The notes under the pieces were generated by a model that worked only from the letters and a program-made list of their open reading frames with translations, ran no database searches and had not been told where the DNA came from. A DNA stretch of 37,298 nt from a virus (taxonomy: Duplodnaviria > Heunggongvirae > Uroviricota > Caudoviricetes), in the IMG/VR virus record IMGVR_UViG_2737471849_000005, one strand, 5' to 3'. Shown in pieces: positions 4,006 through 27,112 of this stretch (positions are counted from its first letter, which is position 1; each line of letters begins with the position of its first letter). The position numbers and the translations under genes are program-made.

Positions 4006-4232
4006 TGGCTGATGCAATGGATCTCGTACAGCAGCGAGTTGAAGAAGAACGCCAACGTCATATCCGTGCTGCCCGTGCCAAAACGCCGGGCGTGTCCCGC
4101 GTGCTTTGCGTTGAGTGTGAAGCGCCAATTCCGCCAGCACGCCGCCGTGCCATTCCGGGGGTGCAGCTTTGCATTACCTGTCAGGAAATCGCAGAGCTGA
4201 AAGGCAAACATTACAACGGAGGTGCTGTATGA
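4005..4232 (+). CDS. TraR/DksA-family C4 zinc-finger protein (P2 orf82-like)
   Basis: The translation has a CVECEAPIP...CITC four-cysteine motif typical of phage TraR-like proteins. Confidence 0.75.
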   Translation: MADAMDLVQQRVEEERQRHIRAARAKTPGVSRVLCVECEAPIPPARRRAIPGVQLCITCQEIAELKGKHYNGGAV

Positions 4233-5086
4233 GCACCATCCTGAAATGGGCGGGAAATAAAACCGCCATTATGTCCGAACTGAAAAAACACCTTCCTGCT
4301 GGCCCGCGACTGGTTGAACCTTTCGCGGGTTCCTGTGCTGTGATGATGGAGACGGATTACCCCAGCTATCTGGTTGCGGATATTAATCCTGATTTAATCA
4401 ACCTCTATAAAAAGGTTGCTGCTGATTGTGAATCGTTTATATCTCGCGCCAGAGTTTTATTTGAGATCGCAAACAGGGAGGTGGCTTATTACAACATAAG
4501 GCAGGAGTTTAATTACTCCACTGAAATTACTGATTTCATGAAAGCGGTATATTTCCTGTATCTCAATCGTCACGGTTACCGTGGTTTATGTCGCTATAAC
4601 AAGAGCGGGCATTTCAACATTCCCTACGGTAATTATAAAAATCCGTATTTCCCTGAAAAAGAAATTCGCGCATTTGCAGAAAAGGCCCAGCGAGCAACGT
4701 TTATCTGCGCCAGCTTTGATGAAACGCTGGCGATGTTGAAGGCGGGGGATGTGGTGTATTGCGATCCGCCGTATGACGGTAAGTTTTCCGGCTATCACAC
4801 TGATGGTTTCACTGAAGATGACCAGTATCACCTGGCATCTGTTCTTGAACATCGGTCATCAGAAGGACATCCGGTCATTGTTTCTAACAGTGACACATCC
4901 CTGATCCGTTCGCTGTATCGCAATTTTACTCATCACTACATCAAGGCAAAACGCAGCATCGGTGTGGCAGCTGGCGAGGGTAAATCAGCAACAGAAATCA
5001 TTGCTGTTTCCGGGCCGCGCTGCTGGGTGGGATTTGATTATTCGCGTGGCGTGGATAGTTCTGCCGTGTACGGAGTACGTGCATGA
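4229..5086 (+). CDS. dam: DNA adenine methyltransferase (Dam-like, GATC type)
   Basis: The translation has the N-terminal [11 protein letters not shown]...PFAGS motif and the DPPY catalytic motif (VYCDPPYDG). Its start overlaps the TraR stop and its stop overlaps the A start (ATGA). Confidence 0.85.
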
Positions 5087-8082: not shown

Positions 8083-8195
8083 TTTTGTCAATAGACGCTT
8101 GTTTTTACTAATCAAAAAGGGTTACATATGAGTGAGAGGCGATGTCAATCAGATATCGCCTTGTTTTTTGTCAAGAAAAGAATAATAGGCTAAAA

Positions 8196-8873
8196 ATGAA
8201 AATTAATAATGTAGCGTTACCAATATCTCTTGCTGTAATCCTAACTGGTTGCGTGCCACATGCTTCTAACCGAAATATCACTGCTATTGAAGTGGTGAAG
8301 CCTGCTATTGGGCAAAGTGCTACCGCCTACATGGGCGATCCCATTATCACATCTGCTACTGGATTTAAAACGGACGTACTAGAACTTGGTGCGGCTAATG
8401 GTGCATTGTCTTCTATCGCTGCTGGTACATATTGCAGTGAGGGGAATGGAATTTACCGCAATTATCATAACCCTCAAGCTGTTGCGTTAAAAAATCTCTA
8501 TGGGCAAATCGGTAACTATGTTGATTATGTTAGTTACGATGCTGCAAAAAATGAGATATCACCGCCAAATGGTACTTCTTATACTGCATCAGAAATTTCT
8601 ATCAAACGTGTTCCTGATGGGCTGTGTCGAGTTAGTAACTCATTGGTTAAGACTATCGAATACAATGGAAATGCAGGCGGTGTAATGAAGTTCACCTATC
8701 GTGAATTTGCAAACGATATGGCTCGTGCAGCATTTACAACAGATTTTTCTGTAGATTCTAAGGGAAGTGACGTTATCGCTTACAAAGGTGCCAAGTTCAA
8801 AGTGAACAAGGCTGATAACTCGTCTATTTCTTATACAATTATTTCTGGCTTTGACAAGGCTGTCACGTTCTAG
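8196..8873 (+). CDS. Predicted lipoprotein (226 aa), unknown function
   Basis: The N-terminus MKINNVALPISLAVILTGC carries a lipobox (LTGC). The gene is AT-rich, and the protein is Gly/Ser/Thr-rich and ends in Phe. Confidence 0.6.
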   Translation: MKINNVALPISLAVILTGCVPHASNRNITAIEVVKPAIGQSATAYMGDPIITSATGFKTDVLELGAANGALSSIAAGTYCSEGNGIYRNYHNPQAVALKNLYGQIGNYVDYVSYDAAKNEISPPNGTSYTASEISIKRVPDGLCRVSNSLVKTIEYNGNAGGVMKFTYREFANDMARAAFTTDFSVDSKGSDVIAYKGAKFKVNKADNSSISYTIISGFDKAVTF

Positions 8874-9046: not shown

Positions 9047-9065
9047 GGCGTGGCGGGGATACGAG
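9047..9065. other. cos-like sequence (candidate cohesive-end site)
   Basis: The sequence GGCGTGGCGGGGATACGAG resembles the P2/186 19-nt cohesive end as I recall it (GGCG(A/T)GGCGGGGAAAGCA-). About 13 of 19 positions match. Confidence 0.35.
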
Positions 9066-9198
9066 CGCGCGTTATGACAAATAGATGATTAGCCTGATTT
9101 ATTCACAGCTGTATAAATGATCACCTTGTAATTAGGTAAGTAATGTCTTCTATTATCATTGATTTGATAGGATTAATCTGTTTTTTGAGGATTAGAGG

Positions 9199-11535
9199 AT
9201 GATTGAAGAGGTAGTTATTGACAAAGTAGGCTCATATAATGGCCCTACTCAGCTTTTACATGGGCTTTCTAAATTTAACTATTTATATGGAGCTAATGGT
9301 GCAGGTAAAACAACTATAAGTAAAATTATTAATGACCCTGAACAATATCCAACATGTCCGATTAAATGGAAAAATAATATATCTTTAATAAGCTACGTAT
9401 ATAATAAAGATTTTGTTGAAAGAAATTTTAGTCAAGATAAAATTAAAGGTGTATTTACCCTTGGTAGCGATCTTAAGGAGGATGAAGAGAAACTAATATC
9501 TCTTGAAGAAGAAAAAAATAAGCTAATAGAATCTATTATAGCAAAGGAAAAGCTAATAGATGGTGGTGATAATATATTAGGCGTTGTTAAACAAATCGAA
9601 GACCATGAAAAATCTTTTAAAGATTCATGTTGGAAGCAAAAAGTAAAACATGATAATGTGTTCTCAAAGGCTTTTGAGGGATTAAGGAATAGTAGTGAAA
9701 AATTTAAAGCTAGAGTGTTGGCTGAGTATGAAAATAACACATCAGAAGTTTGCTCAATAGCAGAGCTAATTGAGAAAGCAAAAATTGTTTTTTCTACTGA
9801 ATTGACATCACATGTATCAATTACAATTCCATCCTTCAATGGGATAGATGATATTTTGAGTAGGGAGATTTGGAGTGAGCGTATTCTAGGGAAAAAAGAC
9901 GTTAGTGTTTCAGACTTAATTACAATGCTCAATAACAGTGATTGGGTTAAGGAAGGTTTAACATATTTCAGTAAATCTAATCCCAAGTGCCCATTCTGCC
10001 AGCAGGATGTAAATGATAATATATTTGATAATCTATCATCATATTTTGATAAAACATATGAGTTAAAAAAAAGAGAAATCGATGCATTGGTTTTACAATA
10101 TGAACATCAACTTAATAATATCTTGCAGGCGATAGATGATATAAGGGCGATTAAATCTCCATTCATAAATTATGAAGTATTTGAGGATAAGGCTAAGATA
10201 GTATTATCTGAATTAAACAAGAATTTTGAATTGGCAAAAAATAAACGCAATTTTTTAAGTGAATCAGTTCATTTTAGTGACTTAAGTGAAGTTGTTGATG
10301 ATTTTATTTCTTTTTTGAATGATTCAAATCTATTGATAGATAATAATAACAAAATACACAGTAATAGAAAGGTAGAGGCTAGTAATCTTTCTAATCAGAT
10401 ATGGGCATATATCGTAAAGGTGGAGTTAAAGTCTGAAATAACTTCTTACCGTAGCGAATCTGATAAATTTAATAGGAAGTTACAAGGACTTAAATCTGGG
10501 TTAGAGGAAGACAAAAAGAAGTTAATGTTAAATGCTTCGGCTATTGAGGCAATTGAGTCTAATAAAACCAGTACTCTTCCAACTATTACAAAAATTAACA
10601 AGATTCTGGATTCTTATGGCTTCAAAAATTTTTACTTAAAACCCTCCGAAGATAAAAAGCATTATATGATAGTGAGAGATAGTGGAGATAATGCTCGTAC
10701 AACCCTTAGCGAGGGAGAAAAGACATTTATCACTTTTTTGTATTTTTATAGCCTTGTTAGAGGGAGTGATAATGCATCAGGTGTTTTAGATGATCGTGTT
10801 GTAGTATTTGATGATCCAATTTCAAGTTTAGATAGTGATATTCTGTTTATTGTAAGTTCGTTGATTAAAGATTTAATGGAGGATGTTCGTAAGGATGAAG
10901 GAAATATTAAGCAAATTATATTCCTTACACATAATATTTATTTTCATAAAGAGTTGACTTTTAATACTAAAAGATCCGGTAATCAAGCAATGAAAGAGGA
11001 GACTTTTTGGATTGTAAGGAAAAAAGGGAAGGTCTCATATCTTGAAAAGTGCGAATCAAACCCAATAAAAACGTCTTATGATTTGCTCTGGTGCGAATTG
11101 AGAAGAACAGATATTAATAATAATACTATACAAAATACAATGCGAAGGATTTTGGAGAATTACTTTAAGATATTAGGTGGGATGGATATTAGGAAGCTTG
11201 AATGTCATTTTTATGGTGATGAAAAAATCATATTTAAATCTTTAGTGTCATGGATTAATGATGGTTCTCATTTTGCAGGTGATGATCTTTATATGAATTT
11301 AGATACGGAGTCTGTGCAAAAATATTTAATTGTTTTTCAGAAGATATTTGAGTGTAGTGAGCATACTGCCCATTACAAAATGATGATGGGTGAGTTTTAT
11401 AGACCGTTAAATGAGTCACTTCATCTACAAGATGAGTTTGATATTGATGATAGTGCGAATGATGAGTATGCTTCGTCAAAAATTGAGATAGAAGATGGAA
11501 TAAACACATCTCTACATAGCAATACATATTTGTAA
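9199..11535 (+). CDS. ABC/Rad50-like ATPase (778 aa), RloC/PrrC-like; candidate anti-phage defence protein
   Basis: The translation has Walker A GANGAGKTT, ABC-signature-like LSEGEK, Walker B/D-loop VVVFDDPISSLD and H-loop FLTHN. A long Lys/Glu-rich insert contains CPFC. The C-terminal region has RRILE (R-x3-E) and RKLECH (R-x4-H). The gene is very AT-rich. Confidence 0.7.
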   Translation: MIEEVVIDKVGSYNGPTQLLHGLSKFNYLYGANGAGKTTISKIINDPEQYPTCPIKWKNNISLISYVYNKDFVERNFSQDKIKGVFTLGSDLKEDEEKLISLEEEKNKLIESIIAKEKLIDGGDNILGVVKQIEDHEKSFKDSCWKQKVKHDNVFSKAFEGLRNSSEKFKARVLAEYENNTSEVCSIAELIEKAKIVFSTELTSHVSITIPSFNGIDDILSREIWSERILGKKDVSVSDLITMLNNSDWVKEGLTYFSKSNPKCPFCQQDVNDNIFDNLSSYFDKTYELKKREIDALVLQYEHQLNNILQAIDDIRAIKSPFINYEVFEDKAKIVLSELNKNFELAKNKRNFLSESVHFSDLSEVVDDFISFLNDSNLLIDNNNKIHSNRKVEASNLSNQIWAYIVKVELKSEITSYRSESDKFNRKLQGLKSGLEEDKKKLMLNASAIEAIESNKTSTLPTITKINKILDSYGFKNFYLKPSEDKKHYMIVRDSGDNARTTLSEGEKTFITFLYFYSLVRGSDNASGVLDDRVVVFDDPISSLDSDILFIVSSLIKDLMEDVRKDEGNIKQIIFLTHNIYFHKELTFNTKRSGNQAMKEETFWIVRKKGKVSYLEKCESNPIKTSYDLLWCELRRTDINNNTIQNTMRRILENYFKILGGMDIRKLECHFYGDEKIIFKSLVSWINDGSHFAGDDLYMNLDTESVQKYLIVFQKIFECSEHTAHYKMMMGEFYRPLNESLHLQDEFDIDDSANDEYASSKIEIEDGINTSLHSNTYL

Positions 11536-11584
11536 TTTTATTGCAATTGCCAGTAGCAACAATACGGTACTGGCAACTAATATT

Positions 11585-12616
11585 TTAGTTAAGCTCATAT
11601 GGAGAAAATTCTATAAGTTTCTCCCCGAGCCATGCGTTTATTTCCATAAATCGTTTTTGCAAAGGAATTAATTCATTTATCACAAAAACCTTACTAGCCT
11701 TCTCCACATCCCCAAACCCCCCAACATTATTAGGCATTATCCCCATCATTTGCGGCGGCACACGGTGTGCCGCCATCATGTCGTCCCGGCTCACGTTCTT
11801 GATATTCAGAAACTCATCCTTCGCCGCGACTTCTGACAACGGGATAATCTGAAGCCCGTCCTTTTTGCCGTTAGGAGAGTACATAAACAGGTTGCGGAAG
11901 TTGCCTGGCCCTTTGGCGCTTTTCATTGCGTTGCGGAGGTTGTTCACATCTTCTTGGTTCTGTGCGGCATCGGTCATGTACATGATGAAACCTGCATGGC
12001 TGCCGTTGATGTAATACTTACGGCGGAACAGTGTGGCGGACTCGTTGAGCAGGGCTGACGGGATGGCAGAGAGATAACCTGGCAGGCCGTAGATCTCCTG
12101 GTTGATGTCCGGTTCCATCAGATGAAAAATGCTGCCTTTCGTGAACTGATACGGCTGGGCTGTCATACCGTCTTGCACAAACCAGTAGGTATCCAGGTCT
12201 AATCCGCGTCGGGTGTATTTTGCCAAAGCTGGCTCAAGGGCGATAACTTCACCAAAGCGGTTCGTGCGTTTCTCCAGGTAGGCGTTACCAAATACCAGAT
12301 AGTCCTGCACAAAACGCGAAAAAGCCTGCTGGCTGAGCAGCGGATGAGGGATATAGGTACTGGTCAGAATGTTGCACTTTACTGCAATCGGGGAACTGTG
12401 ATGCACGGCGGCGCGGAAGGTGCGCGCCAGTCCATTAAAGCTGACGGGCGGCTCATACCAGCGATCCATCTGTACGCATTCCACATAGTCCAGCAGTTCG
12501 CGGCGGTCCAGCACGGGGATGGGATCACCAAAGCTGAAAGCCTCAGCCGTTGGGCCGTTGCTTGGTTTTGTGTCGTGACCAACTGTTACCTGCTTGGTGT
12601 TTTTACGTTTGCTCAT
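11585..12616 (-). CDS. Q: Portal protein (P2 gpQ family)
   Basis: A 343-aa ORF whose size and position match P2 Q. Its start overlaps the upstream gene's stop (ATGA). Confidence 0.88.
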   Translation of the reverse strand: MSKRKNTKQVTVGHDTKPSNGPTAEAFSFGDPIPVLDRRELLDYVECVQMDRWYEPPVSFNGLARTFRAAVHHSSPIAVKCNILTSTYIPHPLLSQQAFSRFVQDYLVFGNAYLEKRTNRFGEVIALEPALAKYTRRGLDLDTYWFVQDGMTAQPYQFTKGSIFHLMEPDINQEIYGLPGYLSAIPSALLNESATLFRRKYYINGSHAGFIMYMTDAAQNQEDVNNLRNAMKSAKGPGNFRNLFMYSPNGKKDGLQIIPLSEVAAKDEFLNIKNVSRDDMMAAHRVPPQMMGIMPNNVGGFGDVEKASKVFVINELIPLQKRFMEINAWLGEKLIEFSPYELN

Positions 12617-13320
12617 TCTGCCAGTTCCTTGCTAGCGAGAGGCCATTCGCACATAAACAGCATTTTCCAGTCCTCTTCTGATAATTCTTTTTTCATATCG
12701 TTCAGCCAGTTATCAGTAAACAACATTGCTCTAGATGCTGCTGCGTCATCTGCGGTGAACACCATGCTGGTTACGCTGTTGTTTCTGCATAGCTTTTTAT
12801 ATTCCTGCCGTGCCTCTGGGTTAGGGCTGGGAGTGGTGTAGTAGGTGGCGTGGTGGTGTGCGTGCATAGAAATCCCTTTAGCGATGGCAATCATATTTCT
12901 CGGTGATTCACTCCAGGCATACTCTGACACGTAAACATTTCCACTGAGTGCGGAGGTGAGACTGCGGAGGTCGGTAAAATAAATTACTGCACCATTCGGA
13001 AGCTCCAGATGACTTTTGCCTGATTTTATTTTTCCAGTGTGCGTATAAGCTGCGGCCTGGCTTAAGAATGCTGATACATAGGCTTTGATTGCCTGCGCAG
13101 ATGCTGTGCTGCAGCAGAGGAAAATCTGGTTACGCCCGGTATGCAGTGCATCGTTCAGGGCTTCATAGGAAAAAAAGAAATCCGCGCCTACCTGGCGCAT
13201 TTTTGTGAGTACACGGTTTCTACTCTTTGGGCCAGTGTTCCACTCATACTGGTAAGCAAAGAAAGAGCTATCCACCGGAAGTCCCGCGATAGTCATGAGG
13301 TTAGTTGGGATTGGGGGCAT
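12613..13320 (-). CDS. Terminase large-subunit (gpP) paralogue, ATPase-domain-only (235 aa)
   Basis: The translation aligns by eye to residues ~140-390 of the adjacent P protein (e.g. RQVGADFFFSYEALNDALHTGRNQIFL versus RQIGATFYFAREALIDALLTGRNQIFL; LPNGAVIYF versus LPNGATLYF; MLFMCEW versus LLMCEF). Its start forms TGATG with the P stop and its stop forms ATGA with the Q start. Confidence 0.7.
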   Translation of the reverse strand: MPPIPTNLMTIAGLPVDSSFFAYQYEWNTGPKSRNRVLTKMRQVGADFFFSYEALNDALHTGRNQIFLCCSTASAQAIKAYVSAFLSQAAAYTHTGKIKSGKSHLELPNGAVIYFTDLRSLTSALSGNVYVSEYAWSESPRNMIAIAKGISMHAHHHATYYTTPSPNPEARQEYKKLCRNNSVTSMVFTADDAAASRAMLFTDNWLNDMKKELSEEDWKMLFMCEWPLASKELAE

Positions 13321-15086
13321 CAAAAAATCTCCACAATATTGCTGTTATTGGCGGATTCGCCCTGCAGCGGTTCGTTAAACAGTGCGTGCATTGTTGCCCA
13401 GGCCAGATCGGCGTGGCTGGCTTCTTCGCTGCGGCTGGCTTCATAGGTCGGGCGGTTGCCGCTGGCAGTGGTGGCGCGACGGATTGCCATAAAGGACTGC
13501 GCTATGTCGGTGTGCCCGGCGTCAAACTCCAGGCGGCGGTGGCTAATAATGTCGTAGGCCTTGAGTACCAGGGCGTTTTTAACGTTGGGGTTGTAGACAA
13601 ACTCCCGGACGGCAGGAAAAAACGCTTTCACGTTCTCGTAAACCCCGTGACCGACGCCGGTTGAGTCGATACCGATGTATATCACGTTGTACTGTTCAGT
13701 CAGTTTTTTGATGGCGTCAGCCTGGGCGCGGAAGTCCATCCCGCGCCACTGGTGACGCTCAAGAATGCGGAACTTACCGCCCGGCACGGCTGGCGGTGCC
13801 ACCACCACGCACCCGGCGCTGTCGCCGTTTTGCGTACCTTTTGCCGGGTCATAACCGATCCACACTTCGCGCCAGCCAAACGGGCGCAGGGCCAGTGCAT
13901 GAAAGTCGGTCCAGACTTCCCAACTGTCCACCATGCACGCCTGCAGCTCGCTGAGCGGGAACACGGACGCGAGATCGTCCACAAACTCGCACATCAGCAG
14001 GTTCTGGTATTCGTCCGGGCTGTACTCCATGCGCAACTGATCGAGGTCGAAAAGGTTACATCCGCCGCGCACTGCATCTTCCACGGTGACTATCTGGCGG
14101 TATTGCCCGTCTGCGCACAGCAGGCCGGGGGCCAGATTGCTGTGGGACAGGTCGATGTCCACCTTATCGGCTTTGTTGCGCCCACGGTTGAACAGCGCAC
14201 CGGACCAGAACGGATAAGCACTGTGTGTCAGGCTGGATGGCGTGGAAAAATAGGTCTGTCGCCATTTTTTGTGAATAGCCATACCGGAAGCCACTTTGCG
14301 CAGCTCCTGGAATTTCGGTATCCAGAAATATTCATCCAGATACAGGTTACCGTGATAACTCTGGGCAGTGCGGGCATTGGTGCCGAGGAAATACAGTGTG
14401 GCCCCGTTGGGAAGCACCATCGGATCGCCTTTCAGCTCCACCTCCACTTCTTTGGCAAAGTCGATGATGTACTGTTTGAAGACGTGGGCCTGTGCCTTAC
14501 TGGCAGAAAGGAAAATCTGGTTACGTCCGGTAAGCAGGGCGTCAATCAGGGCTTCACGGGCAAAATAGAAGGTCGCGCCGATCTGGCGTGACTTCAGCAG
14601 GTTGCGGATGCGGTTGGTTTTTCCGGCTTCCCACCAGTGGCGCTGGTAGTTGAACATGGAGGAATGGAAAATTTCTTCCAGCTTCTCAATCTGGTCATCG
14701 GTGAAAACATTCTTTTCAGGCTGACGGCGTGGGCCTTTGTTGCGGTTGGCGACGTTAGGGTTTAAGTCGGCTTCGTTGCCGCCATTGTTAAACTTGCCGA
14801 TCCGCGCGTGGCGCTCAGACTGGCGCGCCAGCAGGTCAATCTCTTTGAAATCTTTCCCTTCTTTGTGCTCCTTCATGATGAGCTGGCAGTAGCGTGCGGC
14901 GGTGGTGAGCTGCATCTGATCCAGAGGCCCATAGTCACCCCACTTGTCGCGTTTTTTCCAGCTGTGAACGGTTGCAACTTTCTCGCCCAGCATTTCAGCA
15001 ATGCGGGCTACGCGGTATCCCTGAAAGTACAGCAGCATGGCCTGCCGACGGGGATCGAGATCTGCGGGTGTCAGTGTGGTGTTCAT
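13320..15086 (-). CDS. P: Terminase large subunit / ATPase (P2 gpP family)
   Basis: A 588-aa ORF with an N-terminal HTH-like region and an ATPase core, at the P2 P position divergent from O. Confidence 0.88.
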   Translation of the reverse strand: MNTTLTPADLDPRRQAMLLYFQGYRVARIAEMLGEKVATVHSWKKRDKWGDYGPLDQMQLTTAARYCQLIMKEHKEGKDFKEIDLLARQSERHARIGKFNNGGNEADLNPNVANRNKGPRRQPEKNVFTDDQIEKLEEIFHSSMFNYQRHWWEAGKTNRIRNLLKSRQIGATFYFAREALIDALLTGRNQIFLSASKAQAHVFKQYIIDFAKEVEVELKGDPMVLPNGATLYFLGTNARTAQSYHGNLYLDEYFWIPKFQELRKVASGMAIHKKWRQTYFSTPSSLTHSAYPFWSGALFNRGRNKADKVDIDLSHSNLAPGLLCADGQYRQIVTVEDAVRGGCNLFDLDQLRMEYSPDEYQNLLMCEFVDDLASVFPLSELQACMVDSWEVWTDFHALALRPFGWREVWIGYDPAKGTQNGDSAGCVVVAPPAVPGGKFRILERHQWRGMDFRAQADAIKKLTEQYNVIYIGIDSTGVGHGVYENVKAFFPAVREFVYNPNVKNALVLKAYDIISHRRLEFDAGHTDIAQSFMAIRRATTASGNRPTYEASRSEEASHADLAWATMHALFNEPLQGESANNSNIVEIF

Positions 15087-25085: not shown

Positions 25086-25687
25086 TGGATAATGCCGTAT
25101 TAAATAGCGAGTTTATTGCCACGAAGGCGGGGGATATTACTGTCTATAATTATAATGGTGAAACACGAGAATATATTTCCACATCAACTGAATATCTTGC
25201 TGTTGGTGTCGGTATTCCGGCATGTTCCTGTTTAGATGCACCAGGAACATATAAAGCTGGTTATGCCATCTGCCGCTCTGCGGATTTAAACTCATGGGAA
25301 TATGTGCCAGACCATCGCGGAGAAATCGTCTATAACACCGAAACGGGAGACGCCAAAGAAATCACAACTCCGGGTGATTACCCCGAAAATACAACCACTA
25401 TCGCCCCATTAACGCCATACGATAAATGGGATGGTGAGAAATGGGTGACCGATACTGAGGCACAGCATCACGCCGCAGTAGACGCGGCAGAAGCACAGCG
25501 TCAGTCACTGATTGATACTGCAATGGCTTCCATTAGTCTGATTCAACTGAAATTACAGGCTGGGCGGAAGCTGATGCAGGCAGAGACCTCCCGACTTAAC
25601 ACTGTGCTGGATTACATTGACGCGGTGACGGCAACAGATACCAGCACCGCGCCGGATGTCATCTGGCCTGAACTGCCGGAGGAGTAG
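25085..25687 (+). CDS. G: Tail fibre assembly chaperone G (Tfa)
   Basis: Position and the conserved C-terminal ...DYIDAV.ATDTSTAPDVIWPELPE tail. Confidence 0.8.
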   Translation: MDNAVLNSEFIATKAGDITVYNYNGETREYISTSTEYLAVGVGIPACSCLDAPGTYKAGYAICRSADLNSWEYVPDHRGEIVYNTETGDAKEITTPGDYPENTTTIAPLTPYDKWDGEKWVTDTEAQHHAAVDAAEAQRQSLIDTAMASISLIQLKLQAGRKLMQAETSRLNTVLDYIDAVTATDTSTAPDVIWPELPEE

Positions 25688-26099
25688 GCCATTCAATATC
25701 TGGCGCACTGGAAGTATCGACCAGCTCCAGTGCGTCCAGATAATCCAGCCACAAATTATATTGCGCCAGTTCCTCACCTTTCAGACGACCAATAGCCGCT
25801 TTACCAGCCCATTGTTTACTGTTCATATAATCGTTGGCCTGATTAATCAATTGCTGCTTTTTAAGTTCGGCTGCAGCAATCTGTTCCTCATGTGTTGGTG
25901 GTGGAATTTCAGACCATGCAGGAAAACCATTTTCTCCAGCGATACGGATTTTTCCTTTCGGCGGTAATCCGGAAAACTCAATATACACTTGCTCATCAAC
26001 TTCAACAGCATCATCTGGCCATGAGTCAGCTTGCGTGTAATCCTCTTTCATCTCCAAGGGATAGAAAGAGTTTGTAGTCGCGGAATATATGTAATTCAT
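25659..26099 (-). CDS. Alternative tail fibre assembly chaperone (Tfa') on the inverted strand
   Basis: Its C-terminal ...DYLDALELVDTSSAPDIEWPTPP tail is homologous to the G C-terminus. It is convergent with G. Confidence 0.7.
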   Translation of the reverse strand: MNYIYSATTNSFYPLEMKEDYTQADSWPDDAVEVDEQVYIEFSGLPPKGKIRIAGENGFPAWSEIPPPTHEEQIAAAELKKQQLINQANDYMNSKQWAGKAAIGRLKGEELAQYNLWLDYLDALELVDTSSAPDIEWPTPPAVQAR

Positions 26100-26125
26100 T
26101 TTTCACTCCATAAAGTTAAAAGAAA

Positions 26126-26518
26126 TTAACACCCTAATGCGAAAAATGAAGCACCGATACCGGGTACGCCTGCTCTGGAAATAAATTTCACCGGGTCCTG
26201 GTTATAACCGGCACAAGCTATATAGCCAACATTTGCACTGCCGGGAGTGTAATCCTGAGTCGCAAATACCCGCAGACATCTATTCGGAAATGCAATCGGA
26301 AAATAGGTTACTGTGTCCTGAGACGTCAGCGGAACATCAATTGGCCCCCATTGAATAATTAAACCGGATGGCAATTTTTGATATCCAGGAACTGAAGCAG
26401 AAAGCATAAAACTACCCATATCAGGTATCTGATTCGCCCCTGTCCCTACATTTCTTTTAGCCGCTTCTCCCAAACCAACGTTTAAGAAAATGCAGCGATT
26501 ACGGCTAACTGGCATCAT
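26126..26518 (-). CDS. Alternative tail-fibre C-terminal segment (Sv'-like), promoterless until inversion
   Basis: The minus-strand frame runs through the crossover site and encodes ..VGLGE.. there, matching ..LGLGE.. in H at the left site. Confidence 0.55.
26465..26490. repeat. Gin/Pin-type crossover site (right)
   Basis: The sequence TTCTCCCAAACCAACGTTTAAGAAAA fits the pattern TTnTCnnAAACC..GTTT..GA.AA of gix/cix-type sites, in inverted orientation to the site in H. Confidence 0.55.
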
Positions 26519-26545
26519 CCCCTATTTTTATTCAGGGAGATGATC

Positions 26546-27112
26546 ATGCTTATTGGCTATGTACGCGTGTCAACAAATGACCAGAACACCGATTTGCAAC
26601 GTAATGCGCTGAACTGCGCGGGATGTGAGCGGATTTTTGAGGACAAAATCAGTGGCACTAAGTCCGACAGACCGGGGCTTAAAAAACTGCTCAGGACACT
26701 ATTGGCAGGAGACACGCTGGTTGTCTGGAAGCTGGACAGGTTGGGGCGCAGTATGCGGCATCTTGTTACGCTGATAGAAGAGTTGCGCCAGCGTGGTGTG
26801 AATTTCCGAAGCCTGACTGACAGTATTGATACCAGTACCCCAATGGGCCGTTTCTTTTTTCATGTCATGGGTGCCCTGGCTGAAATGGAACGCGAACTGA
26901 TAGTTGAACGTACCCGGGCAGGGCTGGCTGCAGCTCGTGCTAAAGGCAGAGTAGGTGGACGCCGTCCTAAGTTGACCACTGAACAGTGGGCACAGATTGG
27001 ACGTTTACTCGAGGCCGGAGAATCAAGACAGCGTATTGCACTGATTTTTGATGTAGGCGTTTCTACCATTTATCGAAAATTTCCGGCAAATAAGAGCAAT
27101 AAATCTCCCTGA
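26546..27112 (+). CDS. Serine recombinase DNA invertase (Gin/Pin/Cin/Hin family)
   Basis: The translation MLIGYVRVSTNDQNTDLQRNAL...VVWKLDRLGRSM...FRSLTDSIDTS.PMGRFFFHVMGALAEMEREL is almost collinear with Mu Gin as I recall it. A GGGAGA RBS precedes the start. Confidence 0.9.
   Translation: MLIGYVRVSTNDQNTDLQRNALNCAGCERIFEDKISGTKSDRPGLKKLLRTLLAGDTLVVWKLDRLGRSMRHLVTLIEELRQRGVNFRSLTDSIDTSTPMGRFFFHVMGALAEMERELIVERTRAGLAAARAKGRVGGRRPKLTTEQWAQIGRLLEAGESRQRIALIFDVGVSTIYRKFPANKSNKSP

Follow-up and report, generated by a model that had tools for sequence, protein, structure and literature searches.

The window analyzed here, the whole 37,298-nucleotide stretch of IMG/VR virus record IMGVR_UViG_2737471849_000005 (Caudoviricetes), is an E. 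coli prophage of the P2/186 type, whose genes include those for integrase, CI, CII, Dam methylase, gpA, portal, terminase, and capsid. Between its cos-like site and its portal gene lies a single gene (9199..11535) for a 778-residue protein, which a preliminary description made from the letters alone had proposed as a candidate abortive-infection nuclease. Our profile searches, alignments, and structure predictions indicate that this gene is very probably a member of the RloC family. It is carried as single-gene cargo in a phage defense slot, and we further consider it probable, by analogy with characterized members, that it encodes an anticodon nuclease that DNA ends would trigger to abort infection. 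The following features define the locus.

9047-9065, plus strand: cos-like 19-mer GGCGTGGCGGGGATACGAG, at the end of the conserved phage backbone and inside the segment 8874-9071
9072..9198, plus strand: AT-rich upstream region specific to the cargo, with a GAGG ribosome-binding site; backbone homology on the 5' side ends at 9071
9199..11535, plus strand: RloC-like gene with an ATG start, encoding a 778-residue protein with an ABC-ATPase, a coiled coil with a putative zinc hook, and a predicted anticodon nuclease
11548..11575, no strand assigned: hairpin in the 49-nucleotide spacer between the convergent RloC-like and portal genes, likely a bidirectional terminator
11585..12616, minus strand: portal gene Q, convergent with the RloC-like gene and 49 nucleotides from it

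The RloC-like gene has a GC content of 30.6%, against 50.6% in the window, and its 778-codon frame is intact throughout this AT-rich DNA, which bears out the compositional contrast drawn in the preliminary description. The location given there holds as well. The segment 8874-9071 is 99% identical to Fels-2 and to many P2-like phages of Klebsiella and Salmonella, and because homology to the phage backbone stops at 9071, the gene, with an upstream region of its own, sits between the cos-like site and the portal gene. The cos-like 19-mer agrees at 15 of its 19 positions with the cos sequence of phage 186. A consensus promoter scan returned sites no more numerous than in shuffled sequence, and none 5' of the start of the RloC-like gene. 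At the opposite end of the gene, a 63-nucleotide spacer stretch folds with a minimum free energy of -19.6 kcal/mol (z = -4.36), and none of 200 shuffles was equally stable.

The protein carries a complete set of ABC-ATPase motifs, divided by a long insert and followed by a C-terminal module. We scored conservation over 144 non-redundant representatives, each sharing 32-42% identity with the query, and the fractions in the lines below refer to that set.

9289..9315, plus strand: Walker A motif (P-loop) GANGAGKTT, residues 31-39; K37 kept in 143/144
9439..10683, plus strand: coiled-coil insert dividing the ATPase head, ~residues 81-495 (~415 amino acids), helical in the AF2 model
9988..9999, plus strand: CPFC, putative zinc hook, residues 264-267; C264, P265, and C267 kept in 144/144
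10705..10722, plus strand: ABC signature-like LSEGEK, residues 503-508; S504, G506, and E507 kept in 144/144
10798..10833, plus strand: Walker B motif and D-loop VVVFDDPISSLD, residues 534-545; D538, D539, P540, and D545 kept in 144/144
10921..10935, plus strand: H-loop with linchpin His, FLTHN, residues 575-579; H578 kept in 144/144
11059..11403, plus strand: all-alpha C-terminal module, predicted anticodon-nuclease (ACNase) domain, ~residues 621-735
11143..11157, plus strand: R649-R-I-L-E653, Arg and Glu of the predicted catalytic triad, assigned by conservation and motif match
11191..11208, plus strand: RKLECH, residues 665-670, outside the conserved core
11263..11271, plus strand: G689-S690-H691, predicted catalytic His after a Ser; S690 and H691 each kept in 142/144
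11416..11532, plus strand: acidic, predicted-disordered C-terminal tail, residues 740-778, pLDDT < 50

The open reading frame and every motif listed in the preliminary description were recovered in place. A separate 36-sequence alignment finds C264, P265, C267, the ATPase motif residues, R649, E653, S690, and H691 all invariant. CPFC is the sole CxxC of the protein, and the insert around it (~residues 80-500), which had been called Lys/Glu-rich, is moderately so (K 11.6%, E 9.3%) and mostly helical by prediction. An AF2 model derived from the alignment, with a mean pLDDT of 78, contains an ABC head, long helices flanking the CPFC loop (residues 93-121, 129-151, 285-318, 325-351, 363-388, 390-409, and 411-454), a beta-hairpin, and the all-alpha C-terminal module, with the final 39 residues disordered. 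In a Foldseek search of the PDB, Rad50 with its coiled coil gave the best matches (entries 7zr1, 5da9, 9bi4, and 9q9x), followed by LmuB, SMC/condensin heads, and the retron protein PtuA. The CPFC aligns weakly with the CPVC of the P. furiosus Rad50 zinc-hook structure 1L8D, and the family profile places CP-x-C in register with the Rad50 zinc-hook fragments 1L8D and 6ZFF at E values of 0.15-0.3, which is supportive at most. Neither the protein itself nor the family profile retrieved a significant relative from the PDB by sequence search.

Family searches place the whole protein, rather than its ATPase motifs alone, in one homologous group. The Pfam family AAA_13 aligns with residues 10-718 over positions 2-713 of a 713-position profile (E = 5.8e-164), and a long frame in AT-rich DNA together with this end-to-end match puts the reading frame beyond chance. 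PADLOC model PDLC04890, which represents the candidate single-gene defense family PDC-S06, matches residues 1-733 over profile positions 1-725 of 732 with 884.7 bits. These full-length matches and the Rad50 structural matches sustain the earlier picture of a Rad50-like ATPase divided by a coiled coil with a CxxC hook. Weaker PADLOC matches came from the hidden Markov models (HMMs) for Lamassu LmuB (E = 9e-14) and for PrrC (E = 2.5e-11, residues 459-703), the latter extending into the C-terminal module. That module by itself matches positions 612-713 of the AAA_13 profile (E = 4.8e-25). NCBIfam holds no specific model for the protein and returned just weak generic ABC matches.

Relatives are abundant and, for the most part, full length. 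The exact protein occurs on 54 public contigs, labeled only as 'AAA family ATPase', and falls in a 626-member cluster at 90% identity. A word-indexed homolog search gave 683 matches, and several relatives of 42-45% identity bear the JGI label 'wobble nucleotide-excising tRNase'; relatives are encoded in at least 576 species representatives from many phyla, of whose loci we kept 80 that match at full length. An exhaustive profile search at E <= 1e-30 collected 1,822 clusters at 50% identity, nearly all of them 725-760 amino acids long and matching end to end. The full-length gene is present in 21 of 5,426 complete E. coli genomes, and Streptococcus Javan prophages encode full-length, 26%-identical relatives annotated 'translation-disabling ACNase'. 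We also considered Old, Gabija, Septu, and PARIS and found no support for any of these identities: the protein has no Toprim or HNH domain, AriA gives a weak match confined to the P-loop region, and PADLOC returned no Old or Gabija match.

The C-terminal module also supplies evidence for RloC. R649 is kept in all 144 representatives, E653 is kept in 141 and replaced by Asp in the remaining 3, and the spacing from this Glu to the conserved His is 36-39 residues throughout (37 in 118 of the 144). The resulting pattern, R649-X3-E653-X37-S690-H691, conforms to the published definition of the RloC motif, R-X3-E-X36-52-H with a Ser often preceding the His (Davidov & Kaufmann 2008). R649 and E653 correspond by motif to R692 and E696 of GkaRloC and to R320 and E324 of PrrC. 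In GkaRloC, R692, E696, and H737 are each essential for activity, and the hook mutation C291G hyperactivates the enzyme (Davidov & Kaufmann 2008). RRILE and the downstream GSHF, both singled out in the preliminary description, hold residues that are essentially invariant (R649, E653, and G689-S690-H691).

The third motif noted there, RKLECH, fared differently. We rejected it as a HEPN-like R-x4-H active site, since neither R665 nor H670 is conserved: the first position is Asp in 58, Glu in 30, and Asn in 18 of the 144 representatives, and the second, mostly Lys, Glu, or Gln, is Lys in 60, Glu in 19, and His in just 9. RKLECH is probably a chance occurrence. Because H691 is near-invariant and H670 is rarely His, the catalytic His is likely to be H691 of GSHF. 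The conserved HEPN pattern R-x4-6-H is likewise missing at H691, which is preceded by W-[IV]-[NH]-D-G-S without an Arg. The AF2 model of the module (pLDDT 82.7, pTM 0.79) contains helices only, after the beta-hairpin, and a structure search, which returned no significant solved neighbor, gave no confirmation of a HEPN fold; the PDB copy searched yielded no solved PrrC or RloC nuclease domain. Of the checks suggested earlier, the profile searches gave the AAA_13, PDC-S06, and PrrC matches, and the structure prediction gave the Rad50-like coiled coil.

In size and in genomic setting the protein also resembles known RloCs, which span 658-897 amino acids and are usually unlinked to a restriction-modification (R-M) locus (Davidov & Kaufmann 2008): it has 778 residues, a helical insert with a central CXXC dividing the ATPase, the triad motif, and no R-M genes in its slot. 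With GkaRloC (804 amino acids) and AbaRloC (826 amino acids) it shares the order Walker A, coiled coil with central CxxC, signature, Walker B, and linchpin His, and then the C-terminal R-X3-E-X37-SH triad; it differs from both in being distant in sequence, in being borne by a temperate phage rather than a chromosome, and in its extra acidic tail. Q369M3_9GAMM, which appears in the 2008 Jpred alignment of GkaRloC homologs, scores 131 bits against the profile of the present clade. A bait search with ~357 GkaRloC residues read by optical character recognition (OCR) returned nothing at E <= 1e-10, with Lys/Glu-rich low complexity and OCR noise as the probable cause.

The closest link to a named RloC runs through E. 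coli APEC O1. In a P2-like prophage of that strain, the interval from replication gene A to portal Q holds the gene for a 738-residue 'AAA family ATPase', and in length and flanking genes this protein fits RloC orthologue 51 in Table S1 of Davidov & Kaufmann 2008 (Escherichia coli APEC O1, YP_852004, 738 amino acids, flanked by phage replication initiation and capsid genes). Klaiman et al. 2012 name an 'E. coli APECO1 RloC', and Anantharaman et al. 2013 place PrrC and RloC as divergent HEPN proteins; the APEC O1 protein is probably APECO1_4465, the prototype of their prophage-borne ABC-HEPN group. It is 27% identical to the present protein at full length (E = 1e-45), including MRxILExYF and GSH, and it too belongs to PDC-S06 and AAA_13. 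Both it and the 'AAA_13 / RloC-like' cargo of Rousset et al. share with the present gene the gpA-portal Q region, the CPFC, and the R-X3-E...GSH pattern. The APEC O1 protein belongs to another subfamily (PADLOC PDLC04886, against PDLC04890 here), and its gene lies in reverse orientation in the slot, directly after gpA with a ~500-bp gap before the portal gene.

The proposal of a candidate abortive-infection gene is thus supported by the AAA_13, PDC-S06, and PrrC HMM matches, the Rad50-like structure, the triad, and homology to a named RloC. The characterized enzymes suggest how it might work. Activation of the GkaRloC ACNase needs Walker A K44, Walker B D572, and DNA, and hook mutations bypass this need (Klaiman et al. 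2012); in the model proposed for GkaRloC, intramolecular zinc-hook joints silence the nuclease until dimers at nearby DNA ends hydrolyze ATP. Inducers of double-strand breaks (DSBs) activate RloC in vivo, AbaRloC cuts tRNA-Glu and tRNA-Gln, and a 2015 paper reports activation by phage T4-induced DNA breaks. Because every residue required by the GkaRloC model is conserved in the present protein, a DNA-end-triggered, translation-disabling abortive-infection function is the most likely one. In a lysogen, the Rad50-like head and coiled coil, joined through the CPFC zinc hook, would hold the C-terminal RNase silent. DNA ends would arise, for example, when a superinfecting phage breaks down host DNA or replicates; DNA binding and ATP hydrolysis, involving K37, D538/D539, and H578, would then free the nuclease. 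The R649/E653/H691 site would cut the anticodon loop of tRNA, possibly excising the wobble nucleotide, so that translation would halt, the infection would abort, and the lysogen population with its resident prophage would be protected.

Several observations weigh against so complete an account. Our literature search found no experiment on the present clade or on any P2-borne RloC-like protein, nor any report that a prophage-borne RloC-like protein gives an anti-phage phenotype. The main text of Rousset et al. 2022 does not mention AAA_13, and a preprint describes an E. coli PDC-S06 AAA-ATPase that was called by PADLOC and that DefenseFinder perhaps missed. The hook regions of the A. baylyi and G. 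kaustophilus RloCs, available as OCR fragments only, match the same profile columns with just 20.6 and 12 bits. Since the characterized RloCs are distant, substrate and trigger may differ, and the tRNA targets of AbaRloC and GkaRloC already differ from each other.

These last points lead to the strongest rival, that of an RloC-family RNase with another trigger (a phage protein or a replication intermediate) or another target (a nick, another tRNA site, or another RNA), in which the acidic tail would be regulatory. The protein is just 25-27% identical to the RloC-type sisters compared, and DSBs alone were at first insufficient in A. baylyi. The tail, in which ten Asp and Glu residues face a single Lys or Arg (net charge -9), bears a motif, S-A-N-D-[DE], which only enterobacterial relatives with an identity of ~48% or more share; neither the 43%-identical main family nor APEC O1 RloC has the tail. 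We nevertheless regard a changed trigger or target as unlikely, for the ATPase, hook, and triad residues are all kept and the sequence holds no sign of a different sensor domain. Somewhat less likely still is a bolder version in which the enterobacterial PDLC04890-type clade with its acidic S-A-N-D tail would be a functionally distinct RloC variant, with a C-terminal nuclease fold absent from solved structures rather than a recognizable HEPN, and with a tail or hook that would make activation depend on a cue specific to phages. Linear DNA ends of a superinfecting phage could be such a cue, and the cos ends of the resident P2/186-type phage would be spared.

A further rival treats the protein as a DNA-sensing ATPase like Rad50, SMC, or LmuB, whose C-terminal module would be regulatory or protein-binding and which would act on DNA itself or signal to an unlinked effector. 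It draws on the structural matches, all of them to Rad50, Lamassu LmuB, SMC, and PtuA heads, on the LmuB HMM match, and on the want of a significant nuclease-fold match for the C-terminal module. Head and coiled coil do match Rad50/SbcC and LmuB best in structure, and a CxxC hook is present in Rad50 too, but these proteins use separate nucleases (Mre11/SbcD and LmuA) and have no C-terminal R/E/H module. In the present family R649, E653, S690, and H691 are near-invariant and spaced exactly as in the mutationally proven RloC/PrrC triad, the PrrC HMM match enters the module, and the gene moves alone as cargo without a partner effector. We judge this rival improbable.

The preliminary description had left RloC and PrrC side by side, and of that pair the RloC half survives in the triad spacing and the homology to a named RloC. 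PrrC, the E. coli anticodon nuclease of the EcoprrI locus, is a protein of ~400 amino acids, so the 778-residue product is about twice its size. The two share ABC-ATPase motifs and an R/E/H ACNase triad; PrrC, unlike the present protein, is always encoded within a type Ic hsd locus, is switched on by T4 Stp, and has no coiled-coil/zinc-hook insert. In a PrrC-type scheme, the anticodon nuclease would be silenced by a type I R-M enzyme and freed by a phage anti-restriction factor, and the PrrC HMM match can be cited in its favor, as can the proposal of Davidov & Kaufmann 2008 that RloC interacts with type I R-M in trans and the remark in their Table S1 that APEC O1 'encodes type I EcoK like'. 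The slot and the window contain no hsd genes; the neighbors are a phage backbone reading frame, the cos-like site, and the portal gene, and the family has spread among phages and satellites without an R-M partner. Given the ~415-residue coiled-coil/zinc-hook insert, which is foreign to PrrC, and the absence of a linked R-M locus, the protein is of the RloC type, and a PrrC-type nuclease is highly improbable. Least credible of all is a non-functional or non-defense prophage passenger (moron), for which one could invoke the empty promoter scan, the lack of experimental evidence, and the many partial proteins in the 626-member cluster, against an intact frame of 778 codons at 30.6% GC, an identical protein on 54 contigs within that large cluster, catalytic motifs that are all conserved, and recurrence in two defense hotspots.

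The setting of the gene is that of P2/P4 hotspot cargo: its GC content is foreign, its slot is bounded by phage backbone, and Fels-2 carries other cargo, an unrelated 565-residue gene, between its counterpart of the segment 8874-9071 and portal Q. An Enterobacter relative of 62% identity occupies the same gpA-portal slot, and an E. coli relative of 51% identity lies between psu and the integrase gene of a P4-like satellite. Occupancy of both the P4 satellite and the P2 slot is consistent with cargo exchange between helper phages and satellites. More distant relatives are chromosomal, beside prophage or SOS genes or in unrelated contexts. Single-gene 'AAA_13' cargo appears in both the P2 and the P4 tables of Rousset et al. 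2022 (PMC9122126), where entry 5 of the P2-hotspot table is AAA_13, 'RloC-like', with 420 occurrences; the representative of that entry is 25% identical to the present protein. The classical cargo of the P2 hotspot, P2 Old, offers a parallel, in that both would be single-gene abortive systems of P2-type phages that couple an ABC-ATPase to a nuclease, and P2 Old was recently shown to cleave tRNAs. Its effector is a Toprim domain, however, and it has neither a Rad50-like coiled coil nor a hook.

Much of this has been catalogued already. A 2008 paper described the architecture and already listed its prophage-borne E. coli form, which received its name in 2012 and was discussed the following year. 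Tables from 2022 record its presence in the P2/P4 hotspots, and a PADLOC HMM was built from the present subfamily. The novelty here is limited to the clade itself, which shares 25-27% identity with the E. coli representative already listed, and to a cleaner assignment of the predicted active site. The gene raises no new question, but it reinforces a picture in which the favored payloads of the P2 hotspot are ATPase-coupled tRNA nucleases (Old, PARIS, and RloC-like proteins), and it moves the probable active site for mutagenesis to R649/E653/H691.

Other variable genes lie around the same slot in this and related phages. The 565-residue hypothetical gene of Fels-2 is STM2723.1 (locus L083, 4768-6465), which occupies the cos-to-portal slot and is itself a candidate cargo or defense gene; the P4-satellite psu-int relative is found at L087, 1284-3569, and the Enterobacter gpA-portal relative at L084, 6001-8334. 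Upstream of the cos-like site lies a reading frame for 243 amino acids (8142-8873, plus strand, 39.9% GC), which neither Pfam nor PADLOC matches. Fels-2 has a counterpart of the same length and position (STM2726), and the frame is present in strain WL297 and absent in strain MINF_1D, where an identical RloC-like gene (WP_040072399.1) directly follows a DinI-like gene. A role as partner gene was considered for this frame and dismissed, since it is part of the Fels-2-type backbone, matches no defense family, and is absent beside the identical RloC-like gene of MINF_1D. Its presence in WL297 and absence in MINF_1D make it a second, independent variable gene beside the hotspot.

Downstream, a reading frame for 236 amino acids (12613-13323, minus strand) separates portal Q from terminase P, which normally abut, as in Fels-2 and in the Enterobacter relative. 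The frame encodes a Terminase_6N domain (E = 9.5e-17). Compared with residues 142-368 of the full terminase next to it, its product reaches only 32% identity, too low for a recent terminase duplication. It is full length in 21 of 5,426 complete E. coli genomes, where it is annotated 'terminase large subunit domain-containing protein', and at least MINF_1D and 23CRST035 carry both this frame and the RloC-like gene.

Two further modules of the window lie outside the slot; the window contains no tRNA genes. Just 5' of replication gene A, an orphan D12-class (Dam-type) adenine methyltransferase gene (4169-5086, plus strand) matches the PADLOC orphan methyltransferase model with 369 bits; such enzymes are typical of 186/Fels-2-type phages, and this one could act in anti-restriction. 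The region 25659-27112 has the appearance of a tail-fiber inversion module, with a resolvase/invertase gene (26540-27112, plus strand) beside a tail-fiber C-terminal gene (26126-26518, minus strand) and a tail-fiber assembly gene (25659-26099, minus strand), an arrangement that suggests a Gin/Cin-like host-range switch.

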